Counted from the first letter of the stretch, positions 755-34,935 are shown. The stretch is DNA of 64,000 bases from Candidatus Omnitrophota bacterium (GCA_041650835.1 JBAZKL010000002.1:602435-666434); one strand, 5' to 3'. The notes: generated from the letters alone by a model not told the origin. Numbers and translations: made by a program.

Positions 755-1945
755 TCAACTCGACGCCGCCTCATCAATAATATAGATCATTTTCAAAAGT
801 AAATGATCAGGCACATCAGGATGTACAGGCAGCGTCAAGAGATGAGCCGCTAAATAGCAGGCATGAGGAAAAGCAGCAGGTTGATAACCCAGTTCAAACA
901 TATGATGCAGCGGCCTTAAATACATCCGGGACGCTTCTATGCCGGCTTTCCATAAACGTTTCCTTACTTCTTCTACTTTATTGATATCCTTAAATACCAC
1001 CGGCAGCCGGTTGAAGACCGCGCGCGCATCAGGAGCGATGCGAGGTAAAATAATACCCTTTGATGCCTGCAGCGACTCGATGATCCGCATGCCATAACGG
1101 TTCCTGCGGGTAAAAAACTCCTCAGCCTTCTTCAAAAGCATTAATCCCAGACCGGCTGAAAAATTGGTGATCTTCTCAACGCTGAAATCACGCGGCGGAT
1201 GCGTTGATTTAAACAGAGATATTAACGGAAATCCCGCCCCATACAAAAAGGGATTAACCGCCTGGCCGAAGGCAAAGGTCTTAGCCGCGAGGATGCTGTT
1301 ACCCCATATCCCCTCCCGTTTAAATAACCGGGCATAGAGCCTCGAACTGATCTCGGCCAATTCTTTGGAATTGGTCATAAGCGCCCCGCCCGCATAGGCC
1401 GATAAATTCTTACCCCGGTTAAAGCTCAAGAAACTGATATCACTAAAGCTTCCTACCGGCTTAGCGTCTACCCTGCTGCCCATTGCCTGGGCGCAATCTT
1501 CGATCACAAAAACATCACGCCTGATTTTCTCCCGGATACGCCCGACCGACTGCATGCCTATGCCAAACATATGCACGCAAACAACTGCCAGGGTATCCGC
1601 TGATACCGCAGCAAACAATGATTCGGCATCAGCATTAAAATCGTCCATGCTGATATCGCATAAAACCGGCTTCAACCCTGCTTTTTTAACCGCGACCACA
1701 AGGCTGCCGGCAGTATAAGCAGGCAGAACCACTTCTTTCTTGTCCGATTTCTCCCGCAGGACCATAAGGGCTAAATATAACGAAGCAATGCCTGAATTGA
1801 CCAGGTAGACATATTTTTGCTGCATCTGCAACGATACCGCGAAAGAAAACTCGTTAGAAATAAACGCATCCCTGCTGTGGCGCACAGCATAGGCAAGATC
1901 ACCGAGGTCAAATACCCCTCCTATAATAGGGATTTTCGCGATCAT
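755..1945 (-). CDS. DegT/DnrJ/EryC1/StrS-family PLP-dependent sugar aminotransferase
   Basis: The 396-aa ORF has the family layout, including the SFNRGKNL lysine region and the ...VFVIEDCAQAMGS motif. Confidence 0.85.
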   Translation of the reverse strand: MIAKIPIIGGVFDLGDLAYAVRHSRDAFISNEFSFAVSLQMQQKYVYLVNSGIASLYLALMVLREKSDKKEVVLPAYTAGSLVVAVKKAGLKPVLCDISMDDFNADAESLFAAVSADTLAVVCVHMFGIGMQSVGRIREKIRRDVFVIEDCAQAMGSRVDAKPVGSFSDISFLSFNRGKNLSAYAGGALMTNSKELAEISSRLYARLFKREGIWGNSILAAKTFAFGQAVNPFLYGAGFPLISLFKSTHPPRDFSVEKITNFSAGLGLMLLKKAEEFFTRRNRYGMRIIESLQASKGIILPRIAPDARAVFNRLPVVFKDINKVEEVRKRLWKAGIEASRMYLRPLHHMFELGYQPAAFPHACYLAAHLLTLPVHPDVPDHLLLKMIYIIDEAASS

Positions 1946-2604
1946 AATTTAACAGCCTCCACGATAATAACAGGAGCGCAACGTTTTATTAAGGAACCTG
2001 CATACACCCGCCGAACGGGAGAGAAGCCTAATTCGCTCAGTAAGGATTCAATACGCTGCGGGTGATAGGTATTAAGCGGTAAATCACTGACTGTCCGGTC
2101 ATAGTAGCCTGCCAGGCGGAATTTAAGCCGCATGAACCAATTACGGGAATTACGAAAATCAAAAATAACTTTCCCCGACCGCTTGCATACGCGCCTGATC
2201 TCCTGAAATGCCTGGCGTACGGTGTCAAACGATTCCATATTCAAAAGGACATTCACGCATACCACCGTATCGAAGTATTCGTCTTCGAAAGCCAGCTTCG
2301 GCGCAGATGACTTCAACACGGTAATATTCGTAAGGCCCTGTTCCTTTATTCTTTCCCCGGCCCGGCGCAGCCTCGCCTCATCAAAATCAATACCCCAAAG
2401 ACGCATCTGAGGATTCTGCCTGGCGAGTTGTGTTATAAACAATCCTTCTCCACAGCCGACTTCAAGTCCCCTGCCGGATGCGCCGCGGCACATTTCCAGC
2501 GCCTGCCTGCGGATCTTATCCTGCCAATAACCGCTGGAATATTCTCCCCGCTCATCTTTTTTGGAAACATACCGGTGCAGCCAATAATAAAGCCTGGTGA
2601 TCAT
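1942..2604 (-). CDS. Class I SAM-dependent methyltransferase
   Basis: Motif I is present as LEVGCGEGLF, and the fold is Methyltransf_11/25-like. Confidence 0.8.
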   Translation of the reverse strand: MITRLYYWLHRYVSKKDERGEYSSGYWQDKIRRQALEMCRGASGRGLEVGCGEGLFITQLARQNPQMRLWGIDFDEARLRRAGERIKEQGLTNITVLKSSAPKLAFEDEYFDTVVCVNVLLNMESFDTVRQAFQEIRRVCKRSGKVIFDFRNSRNWFMRLKFRLAGYYDRTVSDLPLNTYHPQRIESLLSELGFSPVRRVYAGSLIKRCAPVIIVEAVKL

Positions 2605-2616
2605 CGTTTGCGCCCT

Positions 2617-3513
2617 TTATATAAGAAATTGTTGAAGGCCCTCGGGGAAACAGGAAAACTTATCTTTTTCATTGATATAAAGCATTTTATAAAGCCAAAT
2701 CAAAAGTAAAACATTTCTCTCCCTCTCCCCCAACCCGACGGATGAAGCGTACTGATTGATCTTTTCTTTAACCATCGCGGACAACGAACTATCCCGCGCG
2801 TAAAACAAATTAAAATATGCCAAAAAACACTCCGGTTGAAGATAAACATCTTTTTTCTGCAACCTGAAGCGCGAATGGACATAGCGTAAAATAAACTCCA
2901 GGAGGTCAAGAAGCGGTAAACCAGAGCGGCGCATATTATCCCAATCGAGGACCACGACCTTGTTTTTTTTAAGCATGATATTAGCGGGCCTGAAATCGCC
3001 ATGGCAGCATACGACGGGAATTGACACATCGTTATGCGGGACACCGACAAAAAGGTCAGCGATATAGAAGCTTATTTTATCGAATAAAAAAGCTATTTTT
3101 TCCGCAGGTATCACCACCGGAGATTGCAGGGTTTTGCGATGAAAACCGGCAAGCCACTCGCCTGCCAAGCCCAGATGCGAGGAAAAACTTCTTTGCCAAA
3201 ACAGTTTTTGCCGTTGCGCAAGCGATTCTAAAGTAACGCCGCTGGTATATTCCTCAAATACCAGGCAGTACCTGCCGGCGTCGATAAGATCAAGCATTTT
3301 CGGGATAGAATCTTTTAACGGCTCTTCGCAGGTAAGCATGACCTGTTGCAACAGCTTCAGCTTCTCCTGAAGGCAGTCTTTTCCTGATCTATCATAAACC
3401 TTAACTATTGAAGTGGGTTCATTCTTGTTCTCCTGAAACGAAAAGAAAGTGACCCGGTCTTTATTCTTATGCAGGATATAACCGCTCATTTTATTATTAT
3501 CGGTAAAAAACAT
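2617..3513 (-). CDS. Aminoglycoside-phosphotransferase/choline-kinase-fold (APH-like) kinase
   Basis: The catalytic loop CCHGDFRPANIML and the downstream VLDWDNM (DxD) match the APH/ChoK family. Confidence 0.75.
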   Translation of the reverse strand: MFFTDNNKMSGYILHKNKDRVTFFSFQENKNEPTSIVKVYDRSGKDCLQEKLKLLQQVMLTCEEPLKDSIPKMLDLIDAGRYCLVFEEYTSGVTLESLAQRQKLFWQRSFSSHLGLAGEWLAGFHRKTLQSPVVIPAEKIAFLFDKISFYIADLFVGVPHNDVSIPVVCCHGDFRPANIMLKKNKVVVLDWDNMRRSGLPLLDLLEFILRYVHSRFRLQKKDVYLQPECFLAYFNLFYARDSSLSAMVKEKINQYASSVGLGERERNVLLLIWLYKMLYINEKDKFSCFPEGLQQFLI

Positions 3514-3515
3514 TC

Positions 3516-4589
3516 TTAATCCCCGGGTTGGGCCAGAATACTAAAATCAGGCACAAAATATTTAACCAGCTTATAAAAAAAGAATGCCCGCGCAAAAGCC
3601 AAAAGGCATGCCTGCATAGTATTGCGGGGCGTCACCAGGTTCTTTAAAAAGAACCTGACCGCGCGGTCATCATCAATGGATACAATATTATGAAAGCGCC
3701 GGTACGCGGGGATCGGGGCAAAAAAACGTATCCGGGAGAAACCTGCTTTTGTGAGCATCCGGATATGGCCTCCATACGTATAGGTATATTCTCTGAAATC
3801 ACGTTTTCTCATATGCCTGCTGTACATATTTGCCAGACGCCGCGGCAAGAGAGGCGCGAAACGCAGGCCCGAATGGGTATCCTTATACCCGAGAAAATTC
3901 AAGAATGACCACCTGTTTTCTATCGCCAAATATAAAAACCCGTCTTTTTTTAAGACCCGGCGTAATTCCTTGAGCGCCTCCAATTGAGCTCGATAGGGAT
4001 CTATCCCTTCCTCGACCGAAGGGATCCATTCCAAAACTCCGTTTAAAACAACCAAGTCAAAATAAGCTTCAGGCAGCGGCAGATGATTGCTCTGCCCGCA
4101 GACCGGAAAAAGATTACTCAGATTTTCGCTCTGCCTCCTCAAAGAAACAAACTCGACCCGGGAAATCGACGTGTCAAAAGCCACGACTTCTTTATAGATC
4201 CGGGAAAGTGCCACTGAAAGGGTCCCCCATCCGCAGCCAAGGTCCAATATCCGCGCGTCATCCTTGAGTGGAACGATAAAGTGCCAGTCCGCCCGTGATT
4301 CATCAAGGATATATTCATAATACGAAGGGTCTGTTTTAAGGAATTTTTCCTTTAAAGCCTCCTGCCAGCCTGCCTGTTTTGCGCGAGCGATCAAATCCTG
4401 CATAACTTCCCGGCTGTATTCACCCCAATATCCGGGTTTCTCCACGCAAAAATCAACAATGCCCTCTTTCACGCTCCAGCTGCGGCCGCAGGCCGGGCAG
4501 GAAAACGATATGCCGGCATTCTGCAGAGGCGCTTTACACAGCGGACAGGCAAATTCAAGACCCTGATATATATTCATAGCTTCACTCAT
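3516..4589 (-). CDS. SAM-dependent methyltransferase with an N-terminal Trm112-like zinc ribbon
   Basis: The ribbon is CPLCKAPL...CPACG and motif I is ILDLGCGWGTLS. The track ORF extends to 4679 but would overlap the upstream gene by 94 bp, so the internal start MSEAMN at 4589 is more plausible. Confidence 0.75.
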   Translation of the reverse strand: MSEAMNIYQGLEFACPLCKAPLQNAGISFSCPACGRSWSVKEGIVDFCVEKPGYWGEYSREVMQDLIARAKQAGWQEALKEKFLKTDPSYYEYILDESRADWHFIVPLKDDARILDLGCGWGTLSVALSRIYKEVVAFDTSISRVEFVSLRRQSENLSNLFPVCGQSNHLPLPEAYFDLVVLNGVLEWIPSVEEGIDPYRAQLEALKELRRVLKKDGFLYLAIENRWSFLNFLGYKDTHSGLRFAPLLPRRLANMYSRHMRKRDFREYTYTYGGHIRMLTKAGFSRIRFFAPIPAYRRFHNIVSIDDDRAVRFFLKNLVTPRNTMQACLLAFARAFFFYKLVKYFVPDFSILAQPGD

Positions 4590-5686
4590 GATTCTCGAGT
4601 TTTCCCGGGTAAAATGCCGGGTGCAAGCAACAGCAATGCTGCCTGCAGGACTGCTTGCGGCTGTATCACTTTTAAGCAACGCATGGTAGAACAGGTCATC
4701 TTATTACACGGCGCGCACACTGCCTTTTGATACAGGACCACCGCCTGAGGGAAAATATTCCTGGGATCAAAACGACGCAGGCTCCCGGGGCCAAAGAGCG
4801 CCACGAGCGGAGTTTTGAGGACAGCTGCGATATGCATCGGCCCGGTATCATTGGAAATATAAAGGCTGCAGCGCGAAATAAGCGCGGCGAGCTCATTAAG
4901 ATCAAGTTTGCCCGCCAGATTCAGCACTGCCGCGCCGGGAACTCCCGCCAATTGCCGGGCGATCCCGGACTCCTGTTTCCCCCCGGTAATCACGAATTTA
5001 AACTCACCTGACTTACTGATACCGGCGATGACCCGGCAAAAGTTTTCTGCCGGCCATCTGCGTGAAAATTCCCCTCCCGGATGAATACCGATAAGGCGGT
5101 CCTCTGCGCTTATATTCGACCGTTCAAGCAAAATAGACACCGCCTGATAACTTTCTTGAGAAATGGATATATTTATATTCCGATCGGGGACAGTGGCTCC
5201 CAACGCAGAAACCATTTCAATATCATATTCCATCTCCCCCTTATCTCCCGGCCAGGATTCAGGTATTTTAACATCAAAGAACCATCCCCGCTTCTGCGTG
5301 TCTCTCCCGGCAGAAACCTTCGCGGCGACCAAGCGGAACAGGAAAAACATCTTTAACGCGCTCACCCGGCTAAGCATGGTCCTCATATTAACTGCCAGGT
5401 CATAACGCTTCTTTCTGAGGAGGAAAAACAAACGCAGCCGGTGAATCGGCCCTTTTTTATAAAAATAAAACGTATCGAAAAGAGCGCGCCCCTGCAATAA
5501 TTCAGCAGCGCGTTCGGTCGCAAGGATATCTATGCGCGCTTGAGGGAATCTGAGCTTTAAAGCCTCAAGAGCAGGAGACGATAAAAGAAGGTCGCCGATC
5601 CCCCCCAGGTTTACCACCAGGATTCTTTTTATATCAGGTAATTCCATACTCTTTTTGTAAAATGATCTTAACTGCCTGAAAAACAT
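4586..5686 (-). CDS. Glycosyltransferase family 9 (heptosyltransferase-like)
   Basis: The N-terminus RILVVNLGGIGDLLLSSPALEALK is the GT9 signature. An alternative start at M14 (5647) would reduce the overlap with the upstream gene. Confidence 0.8.
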   Translation of the reverse strand: MFFRQLRSFYKKSMELPDIKRILVVNLGGIGDLLLSSPALEALKLRFPQARIDILATERAAELLQGRALFDTFYFYKKGPIHRLRLFFLLRKKRYDLAVNMRTMLSRVSALKMFFLFRLVAAKVSAGRDTQKRGWFFDVKIPESWPGDKGEMEYDIEMVSALGATVPDRNINISISQESYQAVSILLERSNISAEDRLIGIHPGGEFSRRWPAENFCRVIAGISKSGEFKFVITGGKQESGIARQLAGVPGAAVLNLAGKLDLNELAALISRCSLYISNDTGPMHIAAVLKTPLVALFGPGSLRRFDPRNIFPQAVVLYQKAVCAPCNKMTCSTMRCLKVIQPQAVLQAALLLLAPGILPGKTRES

Positions 5687-6701
5687 CCTCTATAGAAATA
5701 GCTTTCATGCACGCGTGGCTTAAACAATCGCCTTTTGAACAAGGGCTGCACGCAAGGTCCTTGCGGATAACGGCCGCTTGCTTTCCTGCCGGAGAATAGC
5801 GCAACGGGTCAGTGGGCCCCATCAATGAAACAACCGGGGTTCCTAAGGCGCCTGCCAGGTGCATCGGCCCGGAATTATTGCATATCAAAAGTTTACACCC
5901 GGATAATACCGAAATGAGCGCTTTTATATCAGTTAAGCGCGCCTGGGCCCTGCTGTCATTGATCCCTGCGACGATATCGCTGACCAGGTCTTTTTCTCCG
6001 GGAGCTCCCAGTACAACGATCTTGAGGGAATAGGTTCCCAGCAATTTCTTCGCTAATAAAGCAAAAGAAGATTTATCCCAGCGCTGCGTTGCGTAAAATC
6101 CTCCGGGATGTATGGCGATGATATCATCTTTTGCGCCCCGGCTACCTAGGTCAAGCTTTGGGGTATCGACCGTAACCGGGATCTTTAACCCCTTTAATAA
6201 TTCAAGGTTCAGCTGGGCCATATTTTTTCCGGGGCGCCGTAGCGGGTCGGCCGTATGGGTGAAAAAGATCTCTTTAAAACCAAACCGGAAACCCGCCCGG
6301 ACAGGCGCGGCGCTTATATACGCTAAAAAGGCTGAATCGAACCGGTAATCACAATGCATATCGATCGCCAGGTCATAGCCTGCCCGCCGGATCTTTACGG
6401 CGGCAGGTATTATTTTATCATAGACTTCGATATGGTCGATACTTTTAATCAACTCCGCCAATTCTTTCAAATAGGGGCGCACGACGATACTGATCGCTGC
6501 CTGCGGCAGCGCCAGCTTAAGATTATCAATTAACGGTAACGTTAAGATCAAATCCCCCATACGGTCGATCCTGACGATCAAAATGTTCGCGAAAGAAGCG
6601 CTCGTGCGCGCGCGGGGAGGATAAACGCACTTGAGCAGAAAAATAAACGGCAATCGCAAAACAAAATACACTTCCCTGAGTATTTTCTTAAGTACCGTCA
6701 T
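5634..6701 (-). CDS. Glycosyltransferase family 9 (heptosyltransferase-like), second copy
   Basis: ILIVRIDRMGDLILTLPLIDNLK and the C-terminal GPMHLAGALGTPVVSL match GT9. Confidence 0.8.
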   Translation of the reverse strand: MTVLKKILREVYFVLRLPFIFLLKCVYPPRARTSASFANILIVRIDRMGDLILTLPLIDNLKLALPQAAISIVVRPYLKELAELIKSIDHIEVYDKIIPAAVKIRRAGYDLAIDMHCDYRFDSAFLAYISAAPVRAGFRFGFKEIFFTHTADPLRRPGKNMAQLNLELLKGLKIPVTVDTPKLDLGSRGAKDDIIAIHPGGFYATQRWDKSSFALLAKKLLGTYSLKIVVLGAPGEKDLVSDIVAGINDSRAQARLTDIKALISVLSGCKLLICNNSGPMHLAGALGTPVVSLMGPTDPLRYSPAGKQAAVIRKDLACSPCSKGDCLSHACMKAISIEDVFQAVKIILQKEYGIT

Positions 6702-8674
6702 TTTAAGGGTAACGATCCTTTCAGGCGGGGCCTGGCGTAAACCTCCAGCGAATCAAAGCATAACCGGCCTGAAATAAAAGAAAAAAAGCTGTTGATAAGG
6801 TTCAAAACATGTTCCTGCCAACGCGCGCCGTTACAATCCCCCGATACGGCAATAACCTCAAATCCCGACATTTCTAATAACGCGACGAGTGTTTCTTTCT
6901 TAAAGAAATTCAGGTGTAATTCACGGTCTAAAGGGCTGAAAAGATGCGGCTTTTTCCCCTTGACCAGCCGGTAGATACCTCGAGAAAGCCAGTTATCGAG
7001 ATTGGGAAGGGCCAGAACAAGAATCCCGTCATCCTTGAGCAGGCTGCGCAGCTTCTTGATCACCGCCACGGGGTCCCGGGTATGCTCCAACACGTGCCAA
7101 AGCGTAACCGCGTCGAACTCACTGCCCGGCGACTCATACTCGGTAATGTCCCCCCGGAACACTTCGATACCGTATTTCTCTTTGATAAAACTCACCGCGT
7201 AAGAAGAGAATTCCGTCCCAAAAACGCGCCAACCGGCATTTTGAGCAGTCTCAAGAAACAAGCCGTCACCGCAGCCGACATCTAAAAGCCTGCCCTTATG
7301 CGGCGCTGCCGCATTCAACCGCTTAAGCCGGTTGTGCCACATCTTTTGACGGCTTAGCCTTTGTTGGGTGATCCATGGTTTATAATAATCCTGCGCGTAA
7401 TTCCCTGACAAGAGATCATCGGCAGGCAAAGGCCTCACAAAAGCGAAGCGGCACCCTGAACACTGTAAAACTTTATACCCGCAGCCTGAATCTTCCTTCA
7501 CTTTAAAAGCATACCCGCCGCAGAGCTGGCAAGGAGTATCAACGACTTGCGTATTTGCGGCCTCAGCATAAACTTTTTCAATCAACTCCATATGCCGGGA
7601 AACGGTATAAAACGACTTGTACCGTTTTAACGCCTCTTGTTGCAGGCGAAGTCGCTTAAGAGGATCTTTCAATAACGCGACTAAAGCCTCAGCCAGAGCG
7701 TTCGCGCGAGCCGGTTCCACGAACACTCCTGATAAGCCATCTTCAATGATCTCAGCTAAGCCTCCCACCCGGGAAGCGACAACACAGACCCCCATTGCCA
7801 TAGATTCGATCGCCACCCGCCCAAAACCCTCGGTCAATGTCCCTTGCTCATTCTTGATCTCTACCGAAGGGACAACAGTAATATCAAACGCTGCTATCCC
7901 CGGCAATATATCGCGGCGAAAACCCGGAAATAAAAACCGGTCCTCCAGATGAAATCTCTTCACGCATTCTTGCAACTTATGAAAATACTGTCTTTTATCA
8001 GGATCGGCTTCATTCGTATCGGCGAAAATCGCGAAATAAGCGTCAGGAAATTCTTTTCGCACCATAGCCGCTGCCTCGATGAAATATTCGTAACCCTTCA
8101 CCGGATGGATCCTTCCTACCGCGCCGATGAGTAAAGCGGATTCAGGTATAGACAACTCCCTGCGCAATGCTCCACGATCTAAAGACTGGGATTCCGGGAC
8201 CTCGACCGCATTAGCGATAATGCTGAATTTAGCGATATACTTTTTCCCCTTATCCAGGTGGTCCGCCGCAGCCTCGGATACAGCGATCACCTTTCTGGCG
8301 AGTGAGACAAACAAGCGGTCCCTCCAGCTAAACGGATAGATCACGCGTAAATGGCCGATACAGGGCACACCGGCAAGACATGCGGCAACCCCGGCGCGTA
8401 TATCCAGGGAATTCACATGCACCAGGCTTATCGAATACCGCTTCATAAAGCGCGCCAGTTTCCAGATGATCGTAAAATTGGAAAAAAAAGAACCGCGCTG
8501 AAAAACAAACACCTCAACTCCCTGCCCTTTAAGCGCTTCAACCAGGGCGCCTTCTGCGTAACAAACAACATACGGCCGGAACCTCTTCTTATCGAGGCGC
8601 TTCAAGATCAACTGCAGGCTCACCTCGCCTCCGCCTATATGGGGAAATACCGAAACATATAAGATATTTTCCAT
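6698..8674 (-). CDS. Bifunctional GT4 glycosyltransferase fused to a C-terminal zinc-ribbon plus class I SAM methyltransferase
   Basis: The N-terminal half is a GT4 (EGFGRVAIESMAMGVCVVASRVGG). A CQLCGG...CSGCRF zinc ribbon follows, and then methyltransferase motif I LLDVGCGDGLF. Confidence 0.8.
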   Translation of the reverse strand: MENILYVSVFPHIGGGEVSLQLILKRLDKKRFRPYVVCYAEGALVEALKGQGVEVFVFQRGSFFSNFTIIWKLARFMKRYSISLVHVNSLDIRAGVAACLAGVPCIGHLRVIYPFSWRDRLFVSLARKVIAVSEAAADHLDKGKKYIAKFSIIANAVEVPESQSLDRGALRRELSIPESALLIGAVGRIHPVKGYEYFIEAAAMVRKEFPDAYFAIFADTNEADPDKRQYFHKLQECVKRFHLEDRFLFPGFRRDILPGIAAFDITVVPSVEIKNEQGTLTEGFGRVAIESMAMGVCVVASRVGGLAEIIEDGLSGVFVEPARANALAEALVALLKDPLKRLRLQQEALKRYKSFYTVSRHMELIEKVYAEAANTQVVDTPCQLCGGYAFKVKEDSGCGYKVLQCSGCRFAFVRPLPADDLLSGNYAQDYYKPWITQQRLSRQKMWHNRLKRLNAAAPHKGRLLDVGCGDGLFLETAQNAGWRVFGTEFSSYAVSFIKEKYGIEVFRGDITEYESPGSEFDAVTLWHVLEHTRDPVAVIKKLRSLLKDDGILVLALPNLDNWLSRGIYRLVKGKKPHLFSPLDRELHLNFFKKETLVALLEMSGFEVIAVSGDCNGARWQEHVLNLINSFFSFISGRLCFDSLEVYARPRLKGSLPLK

Positions 8675-8698
8675 CCGCTCACCTTAAATGATCATACG

Positions 8699-9382
8699 TC
8701 ATTGGGCAACTCTTAATTTTAACAGGATCCACAATGCCAGGACACCGTCTTTCCAACTTGTTTTCTTGCCGTCTTCAATAGTCCGGGGATAATACGAGAT
8801 CGGGACTTCTACTATCCTTTTACCTTGCAGCAAAAGTTTAGCGGTAACTTCCGGACAAAATTCAAAGCCCTTGCAGGAAAGCGCCAAAGATTTCAGGACT
8901 TCAGATTTAAAGGCTTTATACCCTGTCGATTCATCGGTAAGGCAGCTGCCGTATAAAAGGTTAGTCCACCAGCTTAATAACCTGCCTCCCCAGTAAAAAG
9001 CCGCGTAAGAGCGTTTATTTGTTTTTTTGAGTATCCGGGAACCATAAACCACATCTGCTTCTCCCGAAAAAAGCGGCTTCAAAAGCGCCGGATAATCCTG
9101 AGGGTCATACTCGCAATCAGCGTCCTGTATCAGAATAAACTCTCCCTTGGCGCTCTTCATGCCTCTCCTGATCGCTAATCCCTTTCCGAGATTTTTGTGC
9201 TGGTTCAGGTAAATTACCGGAAAGCCGCATACTTGGGCCTCTGAGGCGGTCAGATCAGTCGAGCCGTCATCAACGACGATCACTTCGAAATCAAAATCAA
9301 GCTTCAAAGCAAAAATATCACATAAGACCTTTCCAAGCGTATGCTCCTCATTATACGCGGGGATTATAATACTGAGCTTCAT
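8699..9382 (-). CDS. GT2 glycosyltransferase (polyprenyl-phosphate sugar transferase-like)
   Basis: MKLSIIIPAYNEE...VVDDGSTD is the GT2 signature with a DxD. Confidence 0.85.
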   Translation of the reverse strand: MKLSIIIPAYNEEHTLGKVLCDIFALKLDFDFEVIVVDDGSTDLTASEAQVCGFPVIYLNQHKNLGKGLAIRRGMKSAKGEFILIQDADCEYDPQDYPALLKPLFSGEADVVYGSRILKKTNKRSYAAFYWGGRLLSWWTNLLYGSCLTDESTGYKAFKSEVLKSLALSCKGFEFCPEVTAKLLLQGKRIVEVPISYYPRTIEDGKKTSWKDGVLALWILLKLRVAQ

Positions 9383-9842
9383 TACTCTCTCCCTTTATTT
9401 GAACTCAAAAGACACCTGCGACTATTCGAGCCGCTCATTATACCTGGCGCCCCAGAGCCCCAGTCACCAGTAACCAGTAACCAGCTACGATAACTAGTGA
9501 TTTAATATACGGTGAACGGGTCCTGTCTTGGACTATTTTCTCGCGGGGACGTTTGCCCCGCCCCGGCGTGGCGGGGCTGCACTCAGGTCGGCTGCGTCGC
9601 TCTGCCCGACTTCGTTTATCGAGGGGCATCCATGCCCGCCCCGTTAGAAACCACGTTTTCTAACGGGGCCCGCTCCTTGCCTTTATGCCCCGCTCGTAAA
9701 CAGTCCAAGCCACCCGTTCATCCGATACTCTATAACTCCCCGTCTACCATGGACCGGGGACTATGGACCATCGGCTAACTGTTTACCCCGAGCTTGTCGA
9801 GGGGTGTCTTGTGTCATGCGACCTGTTTACTCCGGACACGCT
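9383..9842. other. GC-rich, hairpin-dense structured intergenic element (copy A of a two-member family). It is a candidate ncRNA or MITE-like element.
   Basis: It contains tandem CCAGT heptads at 9449-9487, a 12-bp perfect stem at 9631-9660, a GCCCCGCC/GGCGGGGC stem, a ctaccatggaccggggactatggacc block at 9744-9772, a ccccgagcttgtcgagggg hairpin at 9786-9804 and a terminal hairpin at 9811-9839. Its GC content is far above the flanking genes. Confidence 0.5.
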
Positions 9843-11336
9843 TTAACGCACCACCTGATACACATATGCCTTCGGGTTCTCCGGGCTGACAAAGACCCGC
9901 TTAAAGCTGTCCGGATAATCGAACACTAAAGGCAGCAGGTAATCAGAAGCGCTGTCACGGTAAATCTTATTCCGGTCAATAATAAAATAATCGACCTTAT
10001 TGCTCTTGATATATTCGTATTGCGCCCGGGTATCGGTTGAGAGCATGAACTTTATCCCCCGCAGCCCATCGGTATAAATATACAGCCAGTTCGGCCTGCG
10101 GGACATTACAACGCTGTTTGGGGTGCCATGCTCTTTTATCCAGTCAACAGATGAAATAAATGCTTTTTCAGCAGGCGTAAAAAAAGAAGCTTGAAGGCGC
10201 GAACTTTCCAGGATATTCCCGGATAAACCGGCCATCAACAAGAATGCGACCGCCCAAGCAGCCGGTTTTCCCCCGCGCGCTATCCCTTGAACACCACGAA
10301 GCAAATAATACAATAAAAACGGCAGGATCGGCACCAGGTAGCGCGCGCCGTGATGAGTCCAGGAAAGGTACAAAACAAAAAAATATACCAGGACATAAAC
10401 GTCCGTTGGAAGTATCCCTTGTTTTTTTAAATGCCGCCAAAAACCGGCGATCACGCATAAAGCGATCACGCAGCCTATAACGGCTTTGAAGATAAACTCC
10501 GGGGTCACCGGGTCGATCATGGCAAAAAAAGGATACAGGAACAGATCCGGTAATTCTATGCTTACGGTAGCAAGCAAATTATAGATCCAGCGGTCCAAAA
10601 AGCCTGTTATCCCGGAGGTAGATGAAACAAATTCCGCGGTATACGCTGAATGGCCAAATAAGATATTTCGAATGACCCAGGGGGCAAGCAGCATAATAAA
10701 AACTATCCCGAAAAGTAAGCTTCGTTTCACATCCCTCTTAAATCCGAAAAATACTATCGCCGCTATAAAAAGCGAAACCCCGATCATTCTCGTATAATAA
10801 GCGGTTCCCGCGCTCAAAACAAACAACAAAAAGTACTCATTCAGCAAAGATTTACTTTCCCGGTACCGGAATAAAGAATATACAGCCAGCAAGGAAAATA
10901 AGGTATAGGGAATCTCGGATAACACCTGCCGGGCATATAAAACCATTTGGGGCGACAACGCGGCTAAAACTACCACTGCCAAAGACAAGCGTTTCTCAAA
11001 GAAAAAAGGAGCCGTATGCAAAAGCAGCATGACCAGAATGATCGCGAAAAGCACAGTTATTACCTTCAAAATAAAATAATCATGAGGAAAGAAATAAACC
11101 CAGGGCGATAATAACGAAGAATAAAAGAATGGATAGTAATTGCCCTTAACATCCTGAAGCCCGGATGTATACACATAGCCCAACCCCTTTGCCAGGGATT
11201 TGGCAAAAATAATATAGATCGCGCTGTCCTCCTGAAGCGGCAAGAGATTGTTTATCCCAAAGCAATAAAATATAACCGCCGTCAAAAGCAGGGACCCGCA
11301 GATCACTGTTTTATACCGGCTCAGCCAAAACATCAT
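9843..11336 (-). CDS. Polytopic GT-C-fold membrane glycosyltransferase-like protein (ArnT/PMT_2-like)
   Basis: The 497-aa ORF has more than 10 predicted TM helices and a soluble C-terminal domain. The YYTRMIGVSLF region resembles the PMT_2 family. Confidence 0.55.
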   Translation of the reverse strand: MMFWLSRYKTVICGSLLLTAVIFYCFGINNLLPLQEDSAIYIIFAKSLAKGLGYVYTSGLQDVKGNYYPFFYSSLLSPWVYFFPHDYFILKVITVLFAIILVMLLLHTAPFFFEKRLSLAVVVLAALSPQMVLYARQVLSEIPYTLFSLLAVYSLFRYRESKSLLNEYFLLFVLSAGTAYYTRMIGVSLFIAAIVFFGFKRDVKRSLLFGIVFIMLLAPWVIRNILFGHSAYTAEFVSSTSGITGFLDRWIYNLLATVSIELPDLFLYPFFAMIDPVTPEFIFKAVIGCVIALCVIAGFWRHLKKQGILPTDVYVLVYFFVLYLSWTHHGARYLVPILPFLLYYLLRGVQGIARGGKPAAWAVAFLLMAGLSGNILESSRLQASFFTPAEKAFISSVDWIKEHGTPNSVVMSRRPNWLYIYTDGLRGIKFMLSTDTRAQYEYIKSNKVDYFIIDRNKIYRDSASDYLLPLVFDYPDSFKRVFVSPENPKAYVYQVVR

Positions 11337-12480
11337 CGATTATCCTTTGCAGTTGCCCTTGCATCCTTTCAAGAGTCAATTCTTTCGCCACCCGCTCTCT
11401 TGCTTTATTACCCATTATTTGCCTTGCCTTTTCATCTTGCAGCAGCCTGACGATACAGCCGGCAATGCCTTCGATATCAAGCGGATCAACCAGCAGGCCC
11501 GTTTGACCGTCAATGACCGCCTCGGGAACACCGCCGGTCCTACCTGCGATGGCCGCTTTAGCGGAAGCCGCGGCCTCTAAGAACACAATACCAAACCCCT
11601 CAATTTCGCCTCTCTGGGGGATTTCCCTGCTGGTGAGGACAAAAATATCGCAGGCCTCATAATACGCGGGCAGAAGCTCATCAGTAACGCCTTTCTCAAA
11701 AATAACCGTATTCTCTAATCCCAGCTCTTTAACCAAGGCCCTCAAAACCGGCTCCAACGGGCCCTCCCCCACTATCACGTATTTACATTCAGGGAAATAC
11801 GCGCGCACCCGGAACATCGCCCTGATCACAGACTCATGACCCTTACTTTCCACCAGGCGCGCGACAGTAAGGATGACTTCCTTATTCCCAAGCTTTTTCT
11901 TAAGAGAGGCGCCCTTTTGATCAAAGCGCGAAAGCTCGACTATCGGATAAATAACCGCGGCATTCTCTTGTTTAACAATATTCTCAATCAGTTTTTTTGT
12001 AAACCCGCTGTTAGCTATTACATACGCCGCGTTACCAAGCACCAGCCTCATTAAAGCCATTGTTTTACGGTTTTTCTGAGGCGAGCTGACATCAAAACCG
12101 TGGACAAACACAATATAACGCACGCCAAAAAGCTTTTTGAGTGCAAACGCTGCCACGCCGGCCACCGACCAGGTATTCACAAAAAGCAGGCCTGCCTTAC
12201 GGGCGAGGACAAATTTAAGGCCTTTAAAAAAGAAAGCCGCACAACTGCGCGCGTATGAACAAAAGATCTTCTCCGGTTCTAATCCCCGTATCCGTTCGAT
12301 CAGCATTCCGGAAGGCTGCGGTGACCCGGGCATGGCGCCGCAATCAGGAGCGACAACCGTAAGCGCGCGGCCTATCCCCGTAAGAGCTCGCGCCACATCA
12401 AGGCTATGGCGTGCCATGCCACCCGGCATCGGAGGAAAATCAATCGTTAAGAATAATATTTTTCCTATTTTTTTCTGCAT
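11311..12480 (-). CDS. GT4 glycosyltransferase
   Basis: EGFGIVFLEAAASAKAAIAGRTGGVPEAVIDGQTGLLV is the GT4 signature. The start was trimmed to M23 to avoid an 82-bp overlap with the upstream gene. Confidence 0.8.
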   Translation of the reverse strand: MQKKIGKILFLTIDFPPMPGGMARHSLDVARALTGIGRALTVVAPDCGAMPGSPQPSGMLIERIRGLEPEKIFCSYARSCAAFFFKGLKFVLARKAGLLFVNTWSVAGVAAFALKKLFGVRYIVFVHGFDVSSPQKNRKTMALMRLVLGNAAYVIANSGFTKKLIENIVKQENAAVIYPIVELSRFDQKGASLKKKLGNKEVILTVARLVESKGHESVIRAMFRVRAYFPECKYVIVGEGPLEPVLRALVKELGLENTVIFEKGVTDELLPAYYEACDIFVLTSREIPQRGEIEGFGIVFLEAAASAKAAIAGRTGGVPEAVIDGQTGLLVDPLDIEGIAGCIVRLLQDEKARQIMGNKARERVAKELTLERMQGQLQRIIDDVLAEPV

Positions 12481-13214
12481 ATAAGTAATTGTATCCCCCG
12501 GCCGCTTTGAGGACGGTAGATCCGGTCTATCCAATAGATAAACCACGCCAGGGAATCGATGAGTTTAGCGCATATTCTTGAAGTTATTTTCTTATCATTC
12601 ATACAAGGACTTCTTCCCATAAGATTAAAAACAGGAACAGCTTCCACGATATCAATTCCTTGCCGGCGCAAAGCTTCCCGGTACTCGGGTAATTGCCGGT
12701 AACAAACATGAGCATCGGTTATTGCTTTTTCGCCAAGCGCGTCGGTTATAAAGATCCAGGCTCCGGGACGAGCAAAGCGGCTTATATTTTCTATCGCCTT
12801 ACGGAACCCTTGCGGCTCAATGATATGGTATAAAACATCAAAGACATTGATAATATCAAACTTTTCTTCAAGGGGCGCAGTATCGCTGCCGGCATCAAAG
12901 CGGTAAAAATGCTGCGCGGGAAACAGCTTATTAAGAGAAGCAACACTCACTTCCGAAAAATCAATTCCGGTCACCTTACCTGCCTGTTTTTTAATATACT
13001 GCTTTACAAAAAAGCCGGTTCCCGCGCCGATATCCAAAACAGAGCTGCCTCTGACCTTGATCTTATGGCGCTTGAGCGCTTCTTCCAGTACGCGAACCTT
13101 TAATTTATACATAAACCGGTTATAATACCGGCTAAAACCGATGTGGCCGGAGGCCCCCAGAGAAAAATCACGCTTCAACCTCGTTTCCCAATATTCCCGC
13201 GGCTTATACGTCAT
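12465..13214 (-). CDS. Class I SAM-dependent methyltransferase
   Basis: Motif I is VLDIGAGTGFF. Confidence 0.8.
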   Translation of the reverse strand: MTYKPREYWETRLKRDFSLGASGHIGFSRYYNRFMYKLKVRVLEEALKRHKIKVRGSSVLDIGAGTGFFVKQYIKKQAGKVTGIDFSEVSVASLNKLFPAQHFYRFDAGSDTAPLEEKFDIINVFDVLYHIIEPQGFRKAIENISRFARPGAWIFITDALGEKAITDAHVCYRQLPEYREALRRQGIDIVEAVPVFNLMGRSPCMNDKKITSRICAKLIDSLAWFIYWIDRIYRPQSGRGIQLLICRKK

Positions 13215-13286
13215 CTGCGATAAGCTCCTTTATAATCAGCGATATCCCGGATAAACACCGCTTTCTTTAAACTCATCCCGGCCTTA

Positions 13287-14204
13287 TTATTCCACATTAT
13301 AAATAAAATTAGTATCGTAGAGATACCCCGGGCAATAGCGGTTTGCTTCTGCCGTCTTCCGGGCGACAATATAAAGCTGGTCTCCTTTTTTCTTTTGAAA
13401 AAAAGCGACCGGCAATTTAAACAGCAGCCCGAAGAAAATATATCCCAGGTCCTGCGCGAGATTGACCAAAGTGAAATGCTTTTTACTCATAAACTCCCTG
13501 GAATTATCGCGGCTGTAATTAGAGAACGTATGTATGACCTTCAAATTATTGCCCTCGAGTATATCGCAGGCCTCATTGAGCGCCCAAAGACGGTTATGCC
13601 GGCCATACACCCCGTACTTCGAATACGGCTCCCAAGAGCCGTAAAAAAAGAGTTTATATAAATACTTCCAGAAAAGCCCGTTCGGGGTCGTCAAGATAAG
13701 GACCCCGTTATCTTTAAGGACACGGTTGATCTCACAGATCATGTGCGCGGGGGAATGGATAAGATGTTCCAGGACCTCAGAGCATAAAACCATATCAAAG
13801 GTTTTGTCCGCAAAAGGGAAACGGTCTTTTTCCGCGTTGAGCTGCCAGTAGGGGAATTGATACACCTTCCCTATCGCTCTAATAAAGGCGTTTTCCTGTT
13901 TTATATCGTAGCTGCCGCCCGGCCAGACCCCTTTCGGGGCTGAAATTCCCGTCAGCGTATCATCGCTGAATTCCAACAAGGCGGTCGTTAAAAAGTACGG
14001 GAAACAGCCGATCTCCAGGACCGATCCTTTTTCTTGCCGGTAAAACTTTTTGATCAAACCAAGGGTGTGGGAGATCCGGTTAAAAGAGACGCGCAAATAC
14101 TCGTTTAATTCATGAGAAAGCTCTCCCTGAACGGTCTTTAAAGACTCAATACGGCTCTTTAAAAGCGCTTCCAGCGATTCATCAGTGAACGCCCGCAGTG
14201 CCAT
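13287..14204 (-). CDS. Class I SAM-dependent methyltransferase
   Basis: VLEIGCFPYF and DMVLCSEVLEHL match motifs I and II. Confidence 0.7.
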   Translation of the reverse strand: MALRAFTDESLEALLKSRIESLKTVQGELSHELNEYLRVSFNRISHTLGLIKKFYRQEKGSVLEIGCFPYFLTTALLEFSDDTLTGISAPKGVWPGGSYDIKQENAFIRAIGKVYQFPYWQLNAEKDRFPFADKTFDMVLCSEVLEHLIHSPAHMICEINRVLKDNGVLILTTPNGLFWKYLYKLFFYGSWEPYSKYGVYGRHNRLWALNEACDILEGNNLKVIHTFSNYSRDNSREFMSKKHFTLVNLAQDLGYIFFGLLFKLPVAFFQKKKGDQLYIVARKTAEANRYCPGYLYDTNFIYNVE

Positions 14205-15690
14205 AATCCCTTCCTTGTAACGCGTCTAAGTTCTTTGCCCGGGAAAAAAGCCTGAATAAACAAACAAAAACTAAGGGCAAGAAAATAAACGGTAAAAACC
14301 GCAAGAACGGCTTATGAAAACGCCGCGCCGCGTAATAATACCAGAGGTTAAACTCTTTATAGTATTGCGCCGAAGACGTATCAAAAACACGCTCTCCGGC
14401 AATGCCGAATTCAGATGAGCGGTAAAGATTATCTCCCGCGAATAACTTATGCTTCAAAAGCAGGGCGGCGCCGGCAATGTCTGAAGGCATCTTCAAGGAT
14501 GCTTCTTGGCTACCGGAAGCTGCCAAGGTATAGCGGATATGATGGTATTCCTGGTCGCTCTGTAAAACACCGATGATTTGTATGAACGAAGAAACCAGGA
14601 TCAAGACCGCCATGATCGCGCTGATGAATTTCCCTTTATCAAATACCAGGTACGCCGGTAACAACCACAAAGGAATAAAGGGCACCAGGAAACGCGGCCC
14701 CCACGCCCACCCCCCGCCGGCAGAATGCCACGACGCGAACAGGAACACTGCGGCGGTAATGATTGAAATAAAGAACACCGCCTCCCGCCTGGATATTTTC
14801 ATAAACGAGTGAAATCCGAAAGTGCCGGCAAGTAAAACAGGCGAATAGATAAAAATACCTTTATCAAAAGAAAACAATAAATTGCCTATTCTTCCCGGTA
14901 TATTCGCGCAGGAAAACCCGAAAGCTTCCCTCCCATACCCGGTCTCGAATATATTCCCGAACCGCGCCTGATTCATCAGGCCAAGCAAAAGGACAGCCGC
15001 AACCGGCGCCGTTAACAAATAAGCGAACGTTTTCCGGCGTTTTTCTTTTTCGCGAAAGTTACGGCTTAAACAATAGCCGACAAATAACGGAATAAAGACC
15101 AGATAAACGATCTTTAACAAAACAAGCGCGGACAACGCCCCTGATGCCGTAAGGAGAGACTTCCCGGTATTGCGTAAAACCCCATAAACCGCCAATAGCA
15201 GAAAGAACATCTGCGTTGCTTCTGTTAACTCCCAAACGCTGTACCTCCAGCACAGAGTCGCCAGGCCTAAACATAATACAACGGACAACGCCGGCTCATT
15301 CCCGGATTTAAAGAACCCGAGGATCAGGAACAATAAAACGCACGCTCCCGCCCCGAAGCCGATATTATAAAAAGAAGCCAGAAAATCCATTATTGAAACA
15401 TCCCTGACCGCGGTGAAAAAAGAAAGCAGCTTCGCAACAGCGGCGATAGGCACCCACAAGAGCGCCAGGCCGATGCCGTATTTGGAATATTTTCTCCCGG
15501 CAGCCGTCTCGAATACATAATCTTTTTCATGCTCCCCCGCCTCGATCGCGAAAGTCCCCCGGCTCAAAAGAGCATCCGCGGTCTTAAGCGAAAAAACGCT
15601 GTCGGATGACTGCATATAGCCCTTGGCGGAAATAAAATAAAACATCCCAAAGAACAAGAATATCATCATTGCTATTCTTTTATCACCCAT
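14182..15690 (-). CDS. Polytopic membrane protein, GT-C-like (possible glycosyltransferase or polymerase)
   Basis: The 502-aa ORF has many TM helices and no soluble enzymatic motif. Confidence 0.45.
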   Translation of the reverse strand: MGDKRIAMMIFLFFGMFYFISAKGYMQSSDSVFSLKTADALLSRGTFAIEAGEHEKDYVFETAAGRKYSKYGIGLALLWVPIAAVAKLLSFFTAVRDVSIMDFLASFYNIGFGAGACVLLFLILGFFKSGNEPALSVVLCLGLATLCWRYSVWELTEATQMFFLLLAVYGVLRNTGKSLLTASGALSALVLLKIVYLVFIPLFVGYCLSRNFREKEKRRKTFAYLLTAPVAAVLLLGLMNQARFGNIFETGYGREAFGFSCANIPGRIGNLLFSFDKGIFIYSPVLLAGTFGFHSFMKISRREAVFFISIITAAVFLFASWHSAGGGWAWGPRFLVPFIPLWLLPAYLVFDKGKFISAIMAVLILVSSFIQIIGVLQSDQEYHHIRYTLAASGSQEASLKMPSDIAGAALLLKHKLFAGDNLYRSSEFGIAGERVFDTSSAQYYKEFNLWYYYAARRFHKPFLRFLPFIFLPLVFVCLFRLFSRAKNLDALQGRDYGTAGVH

Positions 15691-15695
15691 AGCCC

Positions 15696-16844
15696 TTAAT
15701 GGTTACCCGATAAAACACCTTGATAAACCTGCAATGTCTTTTCCGCGATACGGAAATAACTAAAACGGGCGCTGTATTCTTCGGTTAACTTTACAAGCTC
15801 GTTCATCCGCGGGAGGTCCCGCAATAACCCCGTTATTTTTTCCCGCGCGTGCGCTGCGTCATCATGGCGAAACAACTCTAAACAGGGGACACGCTCATTG
15901 ATCTCGCGATGCGCCTCGATGTCAGACGCCACGATCGGCTTATGATACCCGATGCATAGGCTCAGCGCGCCGGAGGCGCCGGTTGAAGAAAACGGCGCCA
16001 GGCAAATATCGGTCGAGGCGACAATATCGGGGATATCATGCTCCTGAATATATCCGGAAATCCTCACCCGCTGCTGCAGCTTTTTTTGCGCTATTATTTT
16101 CAAAAGACCATGATAATATTCTTGATCAATGCTGTTATCGGTCATACAGCCTCCGGCAATAAACAAAATAACCTCCGGAGGCAATTGCGGTAAAATATCC
16201 AAAATAAGCTCATAACCTTTTTTCCTGTTAATAAACCCGAAAATTGTAATGACGGCCTTATCTTCCAACCCCAGCCTCCTTTTGGCTTGCGCTTTTTCCG
16301 TCGGGCCTAAAGCCCGTGATAACTCCGGTATCCCGTGAGGAATAAGCACTACCCTTTCACGGTTATCAACAAAACGATTCACCGTTACTTGCTGGCAGAG
16401 GGTATGCACGATAATCTTATCGACCCGGGTATACATCGCCTTATGGTACCAGCCTGCCCAGGCATTCCAAAATAAAAGCGTATGATTAAAAACAAACTTT
16501 TTAAGATCTTCGTTAAATCCGCCCTGTACCGGCTTATATGTCGGCCTTACTTCATGCGCGGTCATAATAACGGGGACATTGACGTTTTTCAAGAAATAAA
16601 GGAACCGGTTACGATAAGGCAATTCACCGTTAAAATAAACATAGTTAAACTGCACATGGCAAATATCCGCGCCGGTAATACTCCTGGCTAATGAAGCGTA
16701 ATACGCTTTATCATTGATATAAAACCCGAGCTTGGCGATCTTGATATGAACGCCGCATCGTTTTAAGCCGGTAACCAGATACTGTGAATAATCCGCGATA
16801 CCGTCACGCGAAGTATCCCAGCCGGTACAAAAGGCAACTTTCAT
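15696..16844 (-). CDS. GT4 glycosyltransferase
   Basis: The C-terminal GT1/GT4 fold includes ...APFSSTGASGALSLCIGYHKPIVASD. The start was trimmed to M24. Confidence 0.7.
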   Translation of the reverse strand: MKVAFCTGWDTSRDGIADYSQYLVTGLKRCGVHIKIAKLGFYINDKAYYASLARSITGADICHVQFNYVYFNGELPYRNRFLYFLKNVNVPVIMTAHEVRPTYKPVQGGFNEDLKKFVFNHTLLFWNAWAGWYHKAMYTRVDKIIVHTLCQQVTVNRFVDNRERVVLIPHGIPELSRALGPTEKAQAKRRLGLEDKAVITIFGFINRKKGYELILDILPQLPPEVILFIAGGCMTDNSIDQEYYHGLLKIIAQKKLQQRVRISGYIQEHDIPDIVASTDICLAPFSSTGASGALSLCIGYHKPIVASDIEAHREINERVPCLELFRHDDAAHAREKITGLLRDLPRMNELVKLTEEYSARFSYFRIAEKTLQVYQGVLSGNH

Positions 16845-16845
16845 C

Positions 16846-17418
16846 TTACTTTTTAACCTCCAATTCCAGGTAAATCCCTTCAGCCCTGAATATATAACAG
16901 AAAACTTCTTCATATAACGCGATATGCCTGTTAAAAAAAGCCTCCAGGAGCTTAAAAAAACGGTGCAGCATGAGCTGCCGCCTCCTCAAGTGAAAACGGC
17001 AAGACGCATAAAAACCGTATTCTTTCGATAGAGGCTCGCCTTCGATAAAGTAATCGAAAGAACGGGCGCTGAAATGATGGATATGCGTCGGGTCTATAAA
17101 AGAGCCGTCATCACTGAAATGAGGCGTTACGATATAGACTACGGCTGCGGGTTTTGAGACCCGATAGATCTCTTTCATAACACCGACCGTATCAGGTAAA
17201 TGTTCAAGGGCATTGATGCAAACCACGGTATCAAACTCATTATCAGCGAACGGCCAGGGGAACACATTGAGGTCGGCAAACACATCAGCGTGAGAATCGC
17301 GGTTATTATCTATACCGATCGACCCGGGATATTTATTCTTTCCGCAACAAACATGAAGCGCTTTGCCGGCGCGTGCGCGCTCTTGTATCTTAAGGATGTT
17401 GTCCGTCCAATGCTTCAT
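16846..17418 (-). CDS. Class I SAM-dependent methyltransferase (Methyltransf_11)
   Basis: LHVCCGKNKYPGSIGID and DTVVCINALEHL match the family motifs. Confidence 0.8.
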   Translation of the reverse strand: MKHWTDNILKIQERARAGKALHVCCGKNKYPGSIGIDNNRDSHADVFADLNVFPWPFADNEFDTVVCINALEHLPDTVGVMKEIYRVSKPAAVVYIVTPHFSDDGSFIDPTHIHHFSARSFDYFIEGEPLSKEYGFYASCRFHLRRRQLMLHRFFKLLEAFFNRHIALYEEVFCYIFRAEGIYLELEVKK

Positions 17419-18581: not shown

Positions 18582-18583
18582 AA

Positions 18584-19588: not shown

Positions 19589-19590
19589 AT

Positions 19591-20247: not shown

Positions 20248-20257
20248 TCCTCTACCT

Positions 20258-29612: not shown

Positions 29613-29619
29613 TTTTAGT

Positions 29620-31540: not shown

Positions 31541-31543
31541 AGT

Positions 31544-32128: not shown

Positions 32129-32150
32129 TTCTTCCTCCTTTAATGAAAGA

Positions 32151-33137: not shown

Positions 33138-33138
33138 G

Positions 33139-34932: not shown

Positions 34933-34935
34933 ATC

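Follow-up and report, generated by a model that had tools for sequence, protein, structure and literature searches.

A GT4 glycosyltransferase fused to a Cys4-ribbon class I methyltransferase in a polysaccharide gene cluster of Candidatus Omnitrophota

The stretch of DNA analysed here, hereafter the window, comprises 64,000 nucleotides of a Candidatus Omnitrophota bacterium (GCA_041650835.1, JBAZKL010000002.1:602435-666434). It carries a single open reading frame (ORF; 6698..8674, stop codon included), which opens with an ATG preceded by a Shine-Dalgarno-like AGGTGA and encodes a protein of 658 amino acids (aa), in which a GT4 glycosyltransferase (GT) is followed by a four-cysteine (Cys4) ribbon and a class I S-adenosylmethionine (SAM)-dependent methyltransferase (MT). 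This ORF, and all genes and domains of the window given by coordinate below, lie on the minus strand. An earlier note, made from the sequence alone and giving no strand, had drawn attention to the ORF; the ORF listing and translation agree with it, all of the motifs it quoted being present (C382-QLC385-GG, C405-SGC408-RF and L463-LDVGCGDGLF473). Its reading of a complete GT4, a Cys4 ribbon and a class I MT in one polypeptide also stands, as the domain scan, an alignment of 14 fusion homologues, structural models and Foldseek searches bear out. An identical protein (P0001) is public under the name 'MAG: glycosyltransferase [Candidatus Omnitrophota bacterium]', where it lies on a 676-kb NCBI/JGI contig.

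Pfam places Glyco_transf_4 at aa 13-158 (2e-13; 51.0 bits against a cut-off of 28.5), Glycos_transf_1 at aa 168-350 (1e-29; 103.7 bits against 26.4) and Methyltransf_23 at aa 444-609 (1.6e-24; 87 bits against 27). The NCBIfam scan of the protein returned sub-threshold generic matches alone (stp2, MshA, EpsE and UbiG), and a precise functional name from this source was dropped, as every match was both generic and below its cut-off.

The GT4 domain, which has the GT-B fold and belongs to a retaining family, takes up aa 1-372 (7559..8674). Across the 14 fusion homologues H108, G187-R188...K193-G194 and the glutamates E282/E290 (EX7E) are invariant, the GR..KG element being the phosphate-binding motif. 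The best match of this half in a Foldseek search of the PDB was Anabaena HepE/Alr3699 (4xso; E 8e-27, target TM-score 0.88, 25% identity), followed by BshA, PimB', MshA and the mycobacterial methylmannose-polysaccharide mannosyltransferase (MMP ManT). These solved GT4 enzymes, of which HepE was solved with UDP-glucose, share the GT-B fold and the EX7E motif with the window protein, but they are single-domain proteins with no methyltransferase, and Foldseek found no PDB chain that spans both halves (query TM-score ≤0.50). Given the Pfam matches, the EX7E and GR..KG motifs and the two-Rossmann GT-B fold of the model, the domain is assigned to GT4 and predicted to act with retention.

The ribbon (CQLC-19-CSGC) occupies aa 382-415 (7430..7531), with its cysteines spanning 382-408, and leads into a helical N-terminal extension and the class I SAM methyltransferase core and lid (aa 416-658; 6698..7429, stop included), which are recognised by Methyltransf_23, by motifs and in the model. 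All four cysteines (C382, C385, C405 and C408) are invariant in the 14 fusions; in an alignment of 104 sequences based on the stand-alone MT, three of them remain invariant, with at least 90% conservation of the remaining one. In the model the ribbon forms short beta-strands at 389-395, 401-405 and 411-414 with a predicted local distance difference test score (pLDDT) above 90. The ribbon alone matched no curated zinc family in Pfam (best E 0.08-0.5, far under the cut-offs), and its assignment to PF08421, the TcaB9-type domain, was rejected, there being no Pfam signal even at E≤10. We infer that this putative zinc ribbon may bind zinc.

In the methyltransferase core the 14 fusions share an invariant motif I (L463-L464-D465-x-G467-C468-x-x-G471) and E488, and further W526-H527, E530-H531, P557-N558 and R584-E585-L586-H587. 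In motif I of the 104 MT-family sequences, numbered on the stand-alone protein, D92 and G94 are invariant and L90, V93, C95 and G98 are at least 90% conserved. Modelled alone, the ribbon and MT half reached a pLDDT of 95.1 and a predicted template modelling score (pTM) of 0.92. Foldseek matched it to generic class I methyltransferases (E about 1e-14 to 3l8d, 3cc8, 2p7h and others), while the longest alignments, about 300-318 columns including the ribbon, were to MtmC, KijD1 and TcaB9 (query TM-score 0.58-0.66, root-mean-square deviation (RMSD) 6-8 Å, 15-18% identity). The Pfam match, the glycine-rich motif I, the acidic E488 after strand 2 and the Rossmann-like fold of the model place this half among the class I SAM methyltransferases, and SAM binding and methylation of a sugar are predicted.

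An AlphaFold2 model of the whole protein, built on a 142-sequence alignment, had a mean pLDDT of 95.6 and a pTM of 0.87; for a two-domain protein such a pTM suggests that the halves would have a defined mutual arrangement. The longest helices in the model run to 15-18 residues, the chain ends directly past the MT fold, and no transmembrane segment was predicted in the 658 aa.

The two halves are joined by a short linker (aa 373-381; 7532..7558), which stands where split relatives have an ATGA stop/start overlap and which falls within the zone, 7500-7700, that the earlier note had singled out for a check of frameshift or assembly error. Both alternative frames across the junction are full of stops, and GC content, both overall and at third codon positions (GC3), is equal in the two halves. 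The identical 658-aa ORF occurs in three assembly records, i.e., the 676-kb NCBI/JGI contig, a 354-kb ENA contig and a Logan assembly of SRR8542065. The database search that the earlier note proposed for the same fusion returned 14 homologue clusters, whose representatives range in identity from 42% to 100%, match 86-100% of the query, contain both domains and are collinear with it; the junction is continuous throughout their alignment, and the reading frame stays unbroken in homologues from many samples (82%, 81%, 53% and lower, to 42% identity). An exhaustive HMMER scan of 1.84 billion representatives added about 17 collinear single-stretch matches (31-49% identity). Among 379 fetched proteins the GT preceded the MT in 32 and followed it in one.

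Both halves also exist as separate proteins. Relatives of the C-terminal 285 aa (ribbon plus MT) number in the hundreds, are about 275-290 aa long with 35-48% identity at about 95% coverage, and are spread over several phyla by label, Nitrospirota among them (label of a metagenome-assembled genome, MAG). Stand-alone GT4 relatives of the N-terminal half (about 375 aa, 38-52% identity) are likewise many. Six split loci were checked, three reached from the GT4 side (L007, L008 and L009) and three from the MT side (Deltaproteobacteria, Omnitrophota and Verrucomicrobiae MAGs), and in every one the ribbon-MT gene immediately follows the GT4 gene. The two genes overlap by ATGA in five of the six: in all three loci from the GT4 side, where the MT gene encodes 278 aa, and in two of the three from the MT side, where the arrangement is identical. 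The pairs in L007, L008 and L009, once concatenated, are collinear with the window protein at 47% identity. The earlier note had proposed that the fusion couples sugar transfer and methylation, and this functional coupling is well supported by the six split loci.

As the split MT genes start with MSxx...C.LC, the Cys4 ribbon is the MT's own N-terminus and not a separate linker module. Adjacency and ATGA overlap of the split pairs likewise mean that the window ORF is a fusion of two neighbouring, translationally coupled genes, and that it arose by loss of the stop/start overlap between them. Where the split GT4 ends in K, E or T before its stop and the MT restarts with MSxK, the window protein reads continuously (...EAANTQVVDTP...) and is about 5-6 residues shorter.

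In neighbour-joining trees, drawn with no bootstrap, 14 close Omnitrophota fusions group together in the MT tree and the more distant fusions are scattered, a pattern which suggests recurrent fusion or fission; a single origin of the fusion is not claimed. Further combinations of the same genes occur, namely GT2+GT4+MT (P0012, 883 aa), GT2+GT4 (P0026) and GT4+GT9 (P0042 and P0115), to which P0250 and P0251 can probably be added as GT4+GT9 fusions, judged by length and match position only. These shared fusions argue that GT2, GT4, MT and GT9 act consecutively or as a complex.

The fusion gene is part of a glycan cluster that extends as a single unit from 27639 to the left edge of the window. 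In order of transcription it opens with Wza (26743-27639; Poly_export and SLBB), a small ORF, a Wzc-like protein (24334-26256; Wzz, GNVR and AAA_31), a Wzy_C protein (22835-24211) and Wzx (21268-22875; Polysacc_synt). Two MTs, a GT2, a GT4, an MT, a GT4, a putative membrane GT, two MTs and a GT4 follow, then a GT-C (PMT_2), a 227-aa GT2, the GT4-MT fusion and two GT9 genes, and the cluster ends with an MT, an APH-like kinase, a NodS-like MT, DegT and a radical SAM/SPASM gene. No ABC transporter (Wzm/Wzt) was found among the annotated sizeable ORFs of the 64-kb window, nor in the inspected flanks of related loci.

Directly downstream of the fusion lies a heptosyltransferase-like GT9 gene (5634..6701; Glyco_transf_9, 2e-28), whose ATG overlaps the TGA of the fusion as ATGA (overlap sequence AAATGACGG) and whose product scores 115 bits against the heptosyltransferase II model, under the cut-off of 134.6. 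The second GT9 (4586..5686; Glyco_transf_9, 5e-32) scores 125 bits against the heptosyltransferase III model, under the cut-off of 170.2; it follows the first in L001 and L009, and also in L003/L004 with a GT87 gene in between. Upstream of the fusion is the 227-aa GT2 of the polyprenyl-phosphate sugar synthase type (8699..9382; Glycos_transf_2, 2e-31), with AglJ, dolichyl-phosphate hexose transferase, PpgS and ArnC as its best NCBIfam matches, all below cut-off. In Omnitrophota loci the GT4(-MT) gene invariably comes straight after this GT2, which in P0012 is fused to GT4-MT. Its partner is the GT-C membrane glycosyltransferase (9843..11336; PMT_2, 8e-9); a protein of about 490-498 aa holds the same position in L001, L003/L004 and L005/L006, with PMT_2 annotated in L003-L006 and not in L001. 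Together the GT-C and GT2 genes (8699-11336) look like a module for glycosylation outside the cytoplasm.

The block GT-C, GT2, GT4(-MT), GT9, GT9, NodS-like MT, DegT and radical SAM is kept in other Omnitrophota loci. In relatives, WbqC, PIG-L and a WecA-type initiating transferase (PF00953) come after it, the last of these implying that the pathway is polyprenyl-linked. In an Omnitrophota relative whose GT4 has no MT domain (L005, 11192-12794; L006, 3370-4972) an extra GT2 and an unrelated RMNT_CmcI/Methyltransf_24 methyltransferase stand between GT4 and GT9, and this methyltransferase may be a non-orthologous substitute that took over the methylation step.

Several other features of the cluster and its surroundings deserve mention. 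The cluster packs nine class I methyltransferase genes or domains into about 20 kb (1942-21259), so that its product is expected to be heavily methylated; a 333-aa member of this set (20258-21259) has its own N-terminal CxxC...CxxC ribbon and is 25% identical to the MT half of the fusion. Inserted between the second GT9 and the NodS-like MT is a pair of genes (2617-4679), consisting of a 357-aa MT (3516-4679, gene call starting at 4589) with its own CPLC..CPAC pair and an adjoining APH/EcKL-like kinase (2617-3513). The pair is absent from L001, L003 and L005, and an MT (360 aa) and APH (325 aa) pair recurs in L015. As it would hold the two activities of WbdD (O9a) in separate genes, it is by analogy a candidate for methyl-phosphate or phospho-sugar modification; as a WbdD analogue proper it was rejected, PDB sequence searches giving no WbdD match. 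The otherwise tight, overlapping operon is interrupted by a non-coding gap of about 460 nt (9383-9842), where the same junction measures 19-35 nt in L001 and L003. The gap matched no Rfam family, and promoter and terminator motifs occur in it at background frequency.

At the left edge, the radical SAM/SPASM gene (CNLRCHMC; 1 to about 707) runs out of the window, and in related Omnitrophota loci too it sits beside the DegT aminotransferase gene. On the other side of the cluster, downstream of Wza in window coordinates, 27645-41623 holds two secretin genes (33139-34932 and 38227-40044) and genes for a 1025-aa TPR protein, an AAA_22 ATPase, an HD-domain protein and a 655-aa coiled-coil protein; as a whole this uncharacterised block resembles a secretion or pilus locus, and it adjoins the polysaccharide cluster. 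The minus strand carries every sizeable gene of the window, and each of the 32 two-kb bins of the window has a negative GC skew, consistent with one replichore whose genes are co-oriented.

Taking these observations together, we infer that both domains are active and that the protein is a soluble or peripheral cytoplasmic bifunctional enzyme of an Omnitrophota surface-polysaccharide pathway. With a nucleotide sugar as donor, the GT-B domain would extend a polyprenyl-diphosphate-linked oligosaccharide by one sugar on the inner side of the membrane, probably in alpha linkage because GT4 is a retaining family. The C-terminal domain would then methylate that sugar, or its neighbour, with SAM, most likely on a hydroxyl, and the methyl group would serve as a decoration or a regiochemical block and not as a polymer cap. 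The product would be handed for extension to the GT9 whose gene overlaps the stop codon of the fusion, and the finished unit would be flipped by Wzx, polymerised or ligated by the Wzy_C protein and exported by Wzc/Wza. We give this reading as a whole, with its order of GT4 transfer, methylation and GT9 extension, a probability of roughly 0.6.

A parallel is found in Tannerella forsythia, where MTs encoded in a glycan cluster that also contains wzx place methyl decorations (PMC6120980). Its protein O-glycosylation cluster resembles the present one in its interleaved Gtf and Mtf genes, in its wzx and in the methyl groups placed on specific sugars of a glycan built stepwise; it differs in that GT and MT are separate genes and the glycan goes to proteins, and the families have not been shown to be orthologous to those of the window (PMC6120980).

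Several observations weigh against this order of events or its target. In L005/L006 the GT4 orthologue lacks a ribbon MT, the next gene being a GT2 and the one after it, two genes downstream, the unrelated CmcI-family MT gene, and the GT4 orthologue in L015 has no adjacent ribbon MT either; the GT4 step thus does not require the methylation. One MT relative that stands alone, at 37% identity, is encoded away from any glycan cluster. As for the Wzy_C protein, it could act as a ligase or O-oligosaccharyltransferase instead of a polymerase. Two further points, namely the resemblance of the adjacent GT9 genes to lipopolysaccharide (LPS)-core heptosyltransferases and the nature of the structures that align with the MT half, lead to different accounts of what the enzyme does.

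The GT9 resemblance makes the LPS core, and not the repeat unit of an exopolysaccharide, a possible target; here the chemistry would be identical but would take place on the core or outer-core oligosaccharide of lipid A. Besides the two heptosyltransferase II/III-like genes directly downstream, the Wzy_C family includes WaaL ligases and there is a weak RfaL match, while GT4 enzymes such as WaaG act on LPS core. However, both GT9 proteins fall below their NCBIfam cut-offs, the block is flanked by Wzx/Wzy_C/Wzc/Wza on one side and by DegT and radical SAM on the other, a WecA-type initiating transferase follows in relatives, and no Kdo transferase or lipid A genes were seen in the window. An LPS-core role is therefore unlikely, while keeping an appreciable minority chance.

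According to a second alternative, methylation would precede transfer, with the ribbon-MT half methylating the nucleotide-sugar donor and channelling it to the fused GT4. The only solved structures that align with nearly the whole of the ribbon and MT half, among the 50 Foldseek matches listed, are the nucleoside diphosphate (NDP)-sugar C3-methyltransferases MtmC, KijD1 and TcaB9, and there are weak sequence matches to TcaB9 and MtmC. These three enzymes have an N-terminal Cys4 zinc domain and an additional C-terminal domain that helps to bind the dTDP-sugar, and they C-methylate dTDP-4-keto sugars; on this account the ribbon-MT half would be a trimmed relative of them. The fixed domain arrangement that the pTM suggests would suit such channelling, and the DegT aminotransferase and radical SAM/SPASM protein of the conserved block could modify nucleotide sugars. 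However, the window domain has 285 residues as against 405-419, i.e., it is about 120-135 shorter, Pfam detects in it neither PF08421 nor PF08484, and alignments with an RMSD of 6-8 Å and 15-18% identity are matched in score by generic class I methyltransferases. Moreover, in the cases of bacterial glycan O-methylation that have been characterised (WbdD, WsaE and the T. forsythia Mtfs), the methyl group is added after the sugar has been transferred. This order of events, together with the trimmed kinship it entails, is therefore doubtful. If it were true, the protein would be a self-contained enzyme for a methylated sugar, and the triad of GT4, ribbon-MT and GT9 an uncharacterised methylated-glycan module found across several phyla by MAG labels (Omnitrophota, Verrucomicrobiae and Deltaproteobacteria).

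The earlier note had offered methylation as a chain-termination signal, as in WbdD/WbdA, and this part of it is not supported. On such an account, which would also cover WsaE, the MT half caps the non-reducing end, halts elongation and licenses export, with the GT4 as polymerase or partner. Fusions of a GT with a capping MT are indeed known, and the window protein likewise joins the two activities. WsaE of the Geobacillus stearothermophilus NRS 2004/3a S-layer glycan consists of an N-terminal MT and two rhamnosyltransferase domains (PMC2943079), and ORF6 of Klebsiella pneumoniae O7 combines an MT-kinase, a coiled coil and two GT modules (PMC11231755). In Escherichia coli O8/O9a, WbdD terminates the chain in an ABC pathway with a coiled-coil ruler, and Wzt reads the cap (PMC3482155).

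The likenesses are general. WsaE places a GT and an O-methyltransferase of one glycan pathway in a single polypeptide, as the window protein does, but it belongs to a Wzm/Wzt ABC pathway, its methyl group caps the chain and its MT is N-terminal, whereas the window protein has a C-terminal MT, a single GT4, a Wzx/Wzy_C/Wzc/Wza locus and a coupled downstream GT9. The O7 protein shares the multidomain combination of MT and GT modules, but it is an N-terminal MT-kinase terminator of an ABC pathway with a coiled coil and GT2-type modules, in contrast to the GT4 of the window protein, which is devoid of kinase and coiled coil. WbdD/WbdA have in common with it a class I SAM MT that acts on a nascent polyprenyl-linked glycan and is physically tied to a glycosyltransferase (PMC3482155); WbdD, however, is a protein of its own, which recruits WbdA non-covalently and has a C-terminal coiled-coil ruler and, in O9a, a kinase domain, and its cap is read by a Wzt that bears a carbohydrate-binding module; none of these traits is seen here. 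The window protein is therefore no member of the WsaE, ORF6-O7 or WbdD families and resembles them only in the loose coupling of GT and MT.

The known terminators need an ABC transporter, and WbdD and ORF6-O7 a coiled-coil ruler as well, whereas the window and the inspected related flanks show no Wzm/Wzt, the locus offers Wzx, Wzy_C, Wzc and Wza instead, and the model, whose longest helix has 18 residues, shows no coiled-coil ruler. WbdD is also absent from the PDB sequence (phmmer) matches at E≤0.01 and from the 50 Foldseek matches listed, and the coupled downstream GT9 and the GT4+GT9 fusions imply extension after this step. We consider a terminator role quite improbable.

Least of all can be said for a sequencing or assembly error, i.e., an indel at the stop/start overlap that joined two separate genes: the split relatives overlap by a mere 4 nt, so that one indel could fuse them, and the source is a metagenome-assembled genome, but three concordant assembly records, a fusion conserved in homologues of many samples from 82% to 42% identity, closed alternative frames and a junction that is no simple read-through, being 5-6 residues shorter and lacking the MSxK start of the split MT, make a frameshift or assembly artefact very unlikely, to the point of being negligible.

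Transfer followed by decoration thus remains our preferred reading, and it introduces no new principle, as glycan assembly is already known to employ both GT-MT fusions and GT/MT gene pairs. Both domains of the window protein are very common, as is their context, and the fusing of adjacent pathway genes is a routine evolutionary event. The literature searched contained no published description of this GT4-MT fusion and no glycan study of Omnitrophota, and the architecture, which public databases contain under generic names, is apparently uncharacterised. To our knowledge, nothing is known experimentally of the surface polysaccharides of Omnitrophota. Provided that both halves are active, the fusion would form, together with its split counterparts, a "Rosetta stone" that pairs one GT4 with one MT and, by extension, with GT2 and GT9, in a glycan cluster that spans several poorly studied, mostly uncultured phyla. 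A single expressible protein would as such offer an entry point to the sugar and the methylation site in Omnitrophota surface polysaccharides.

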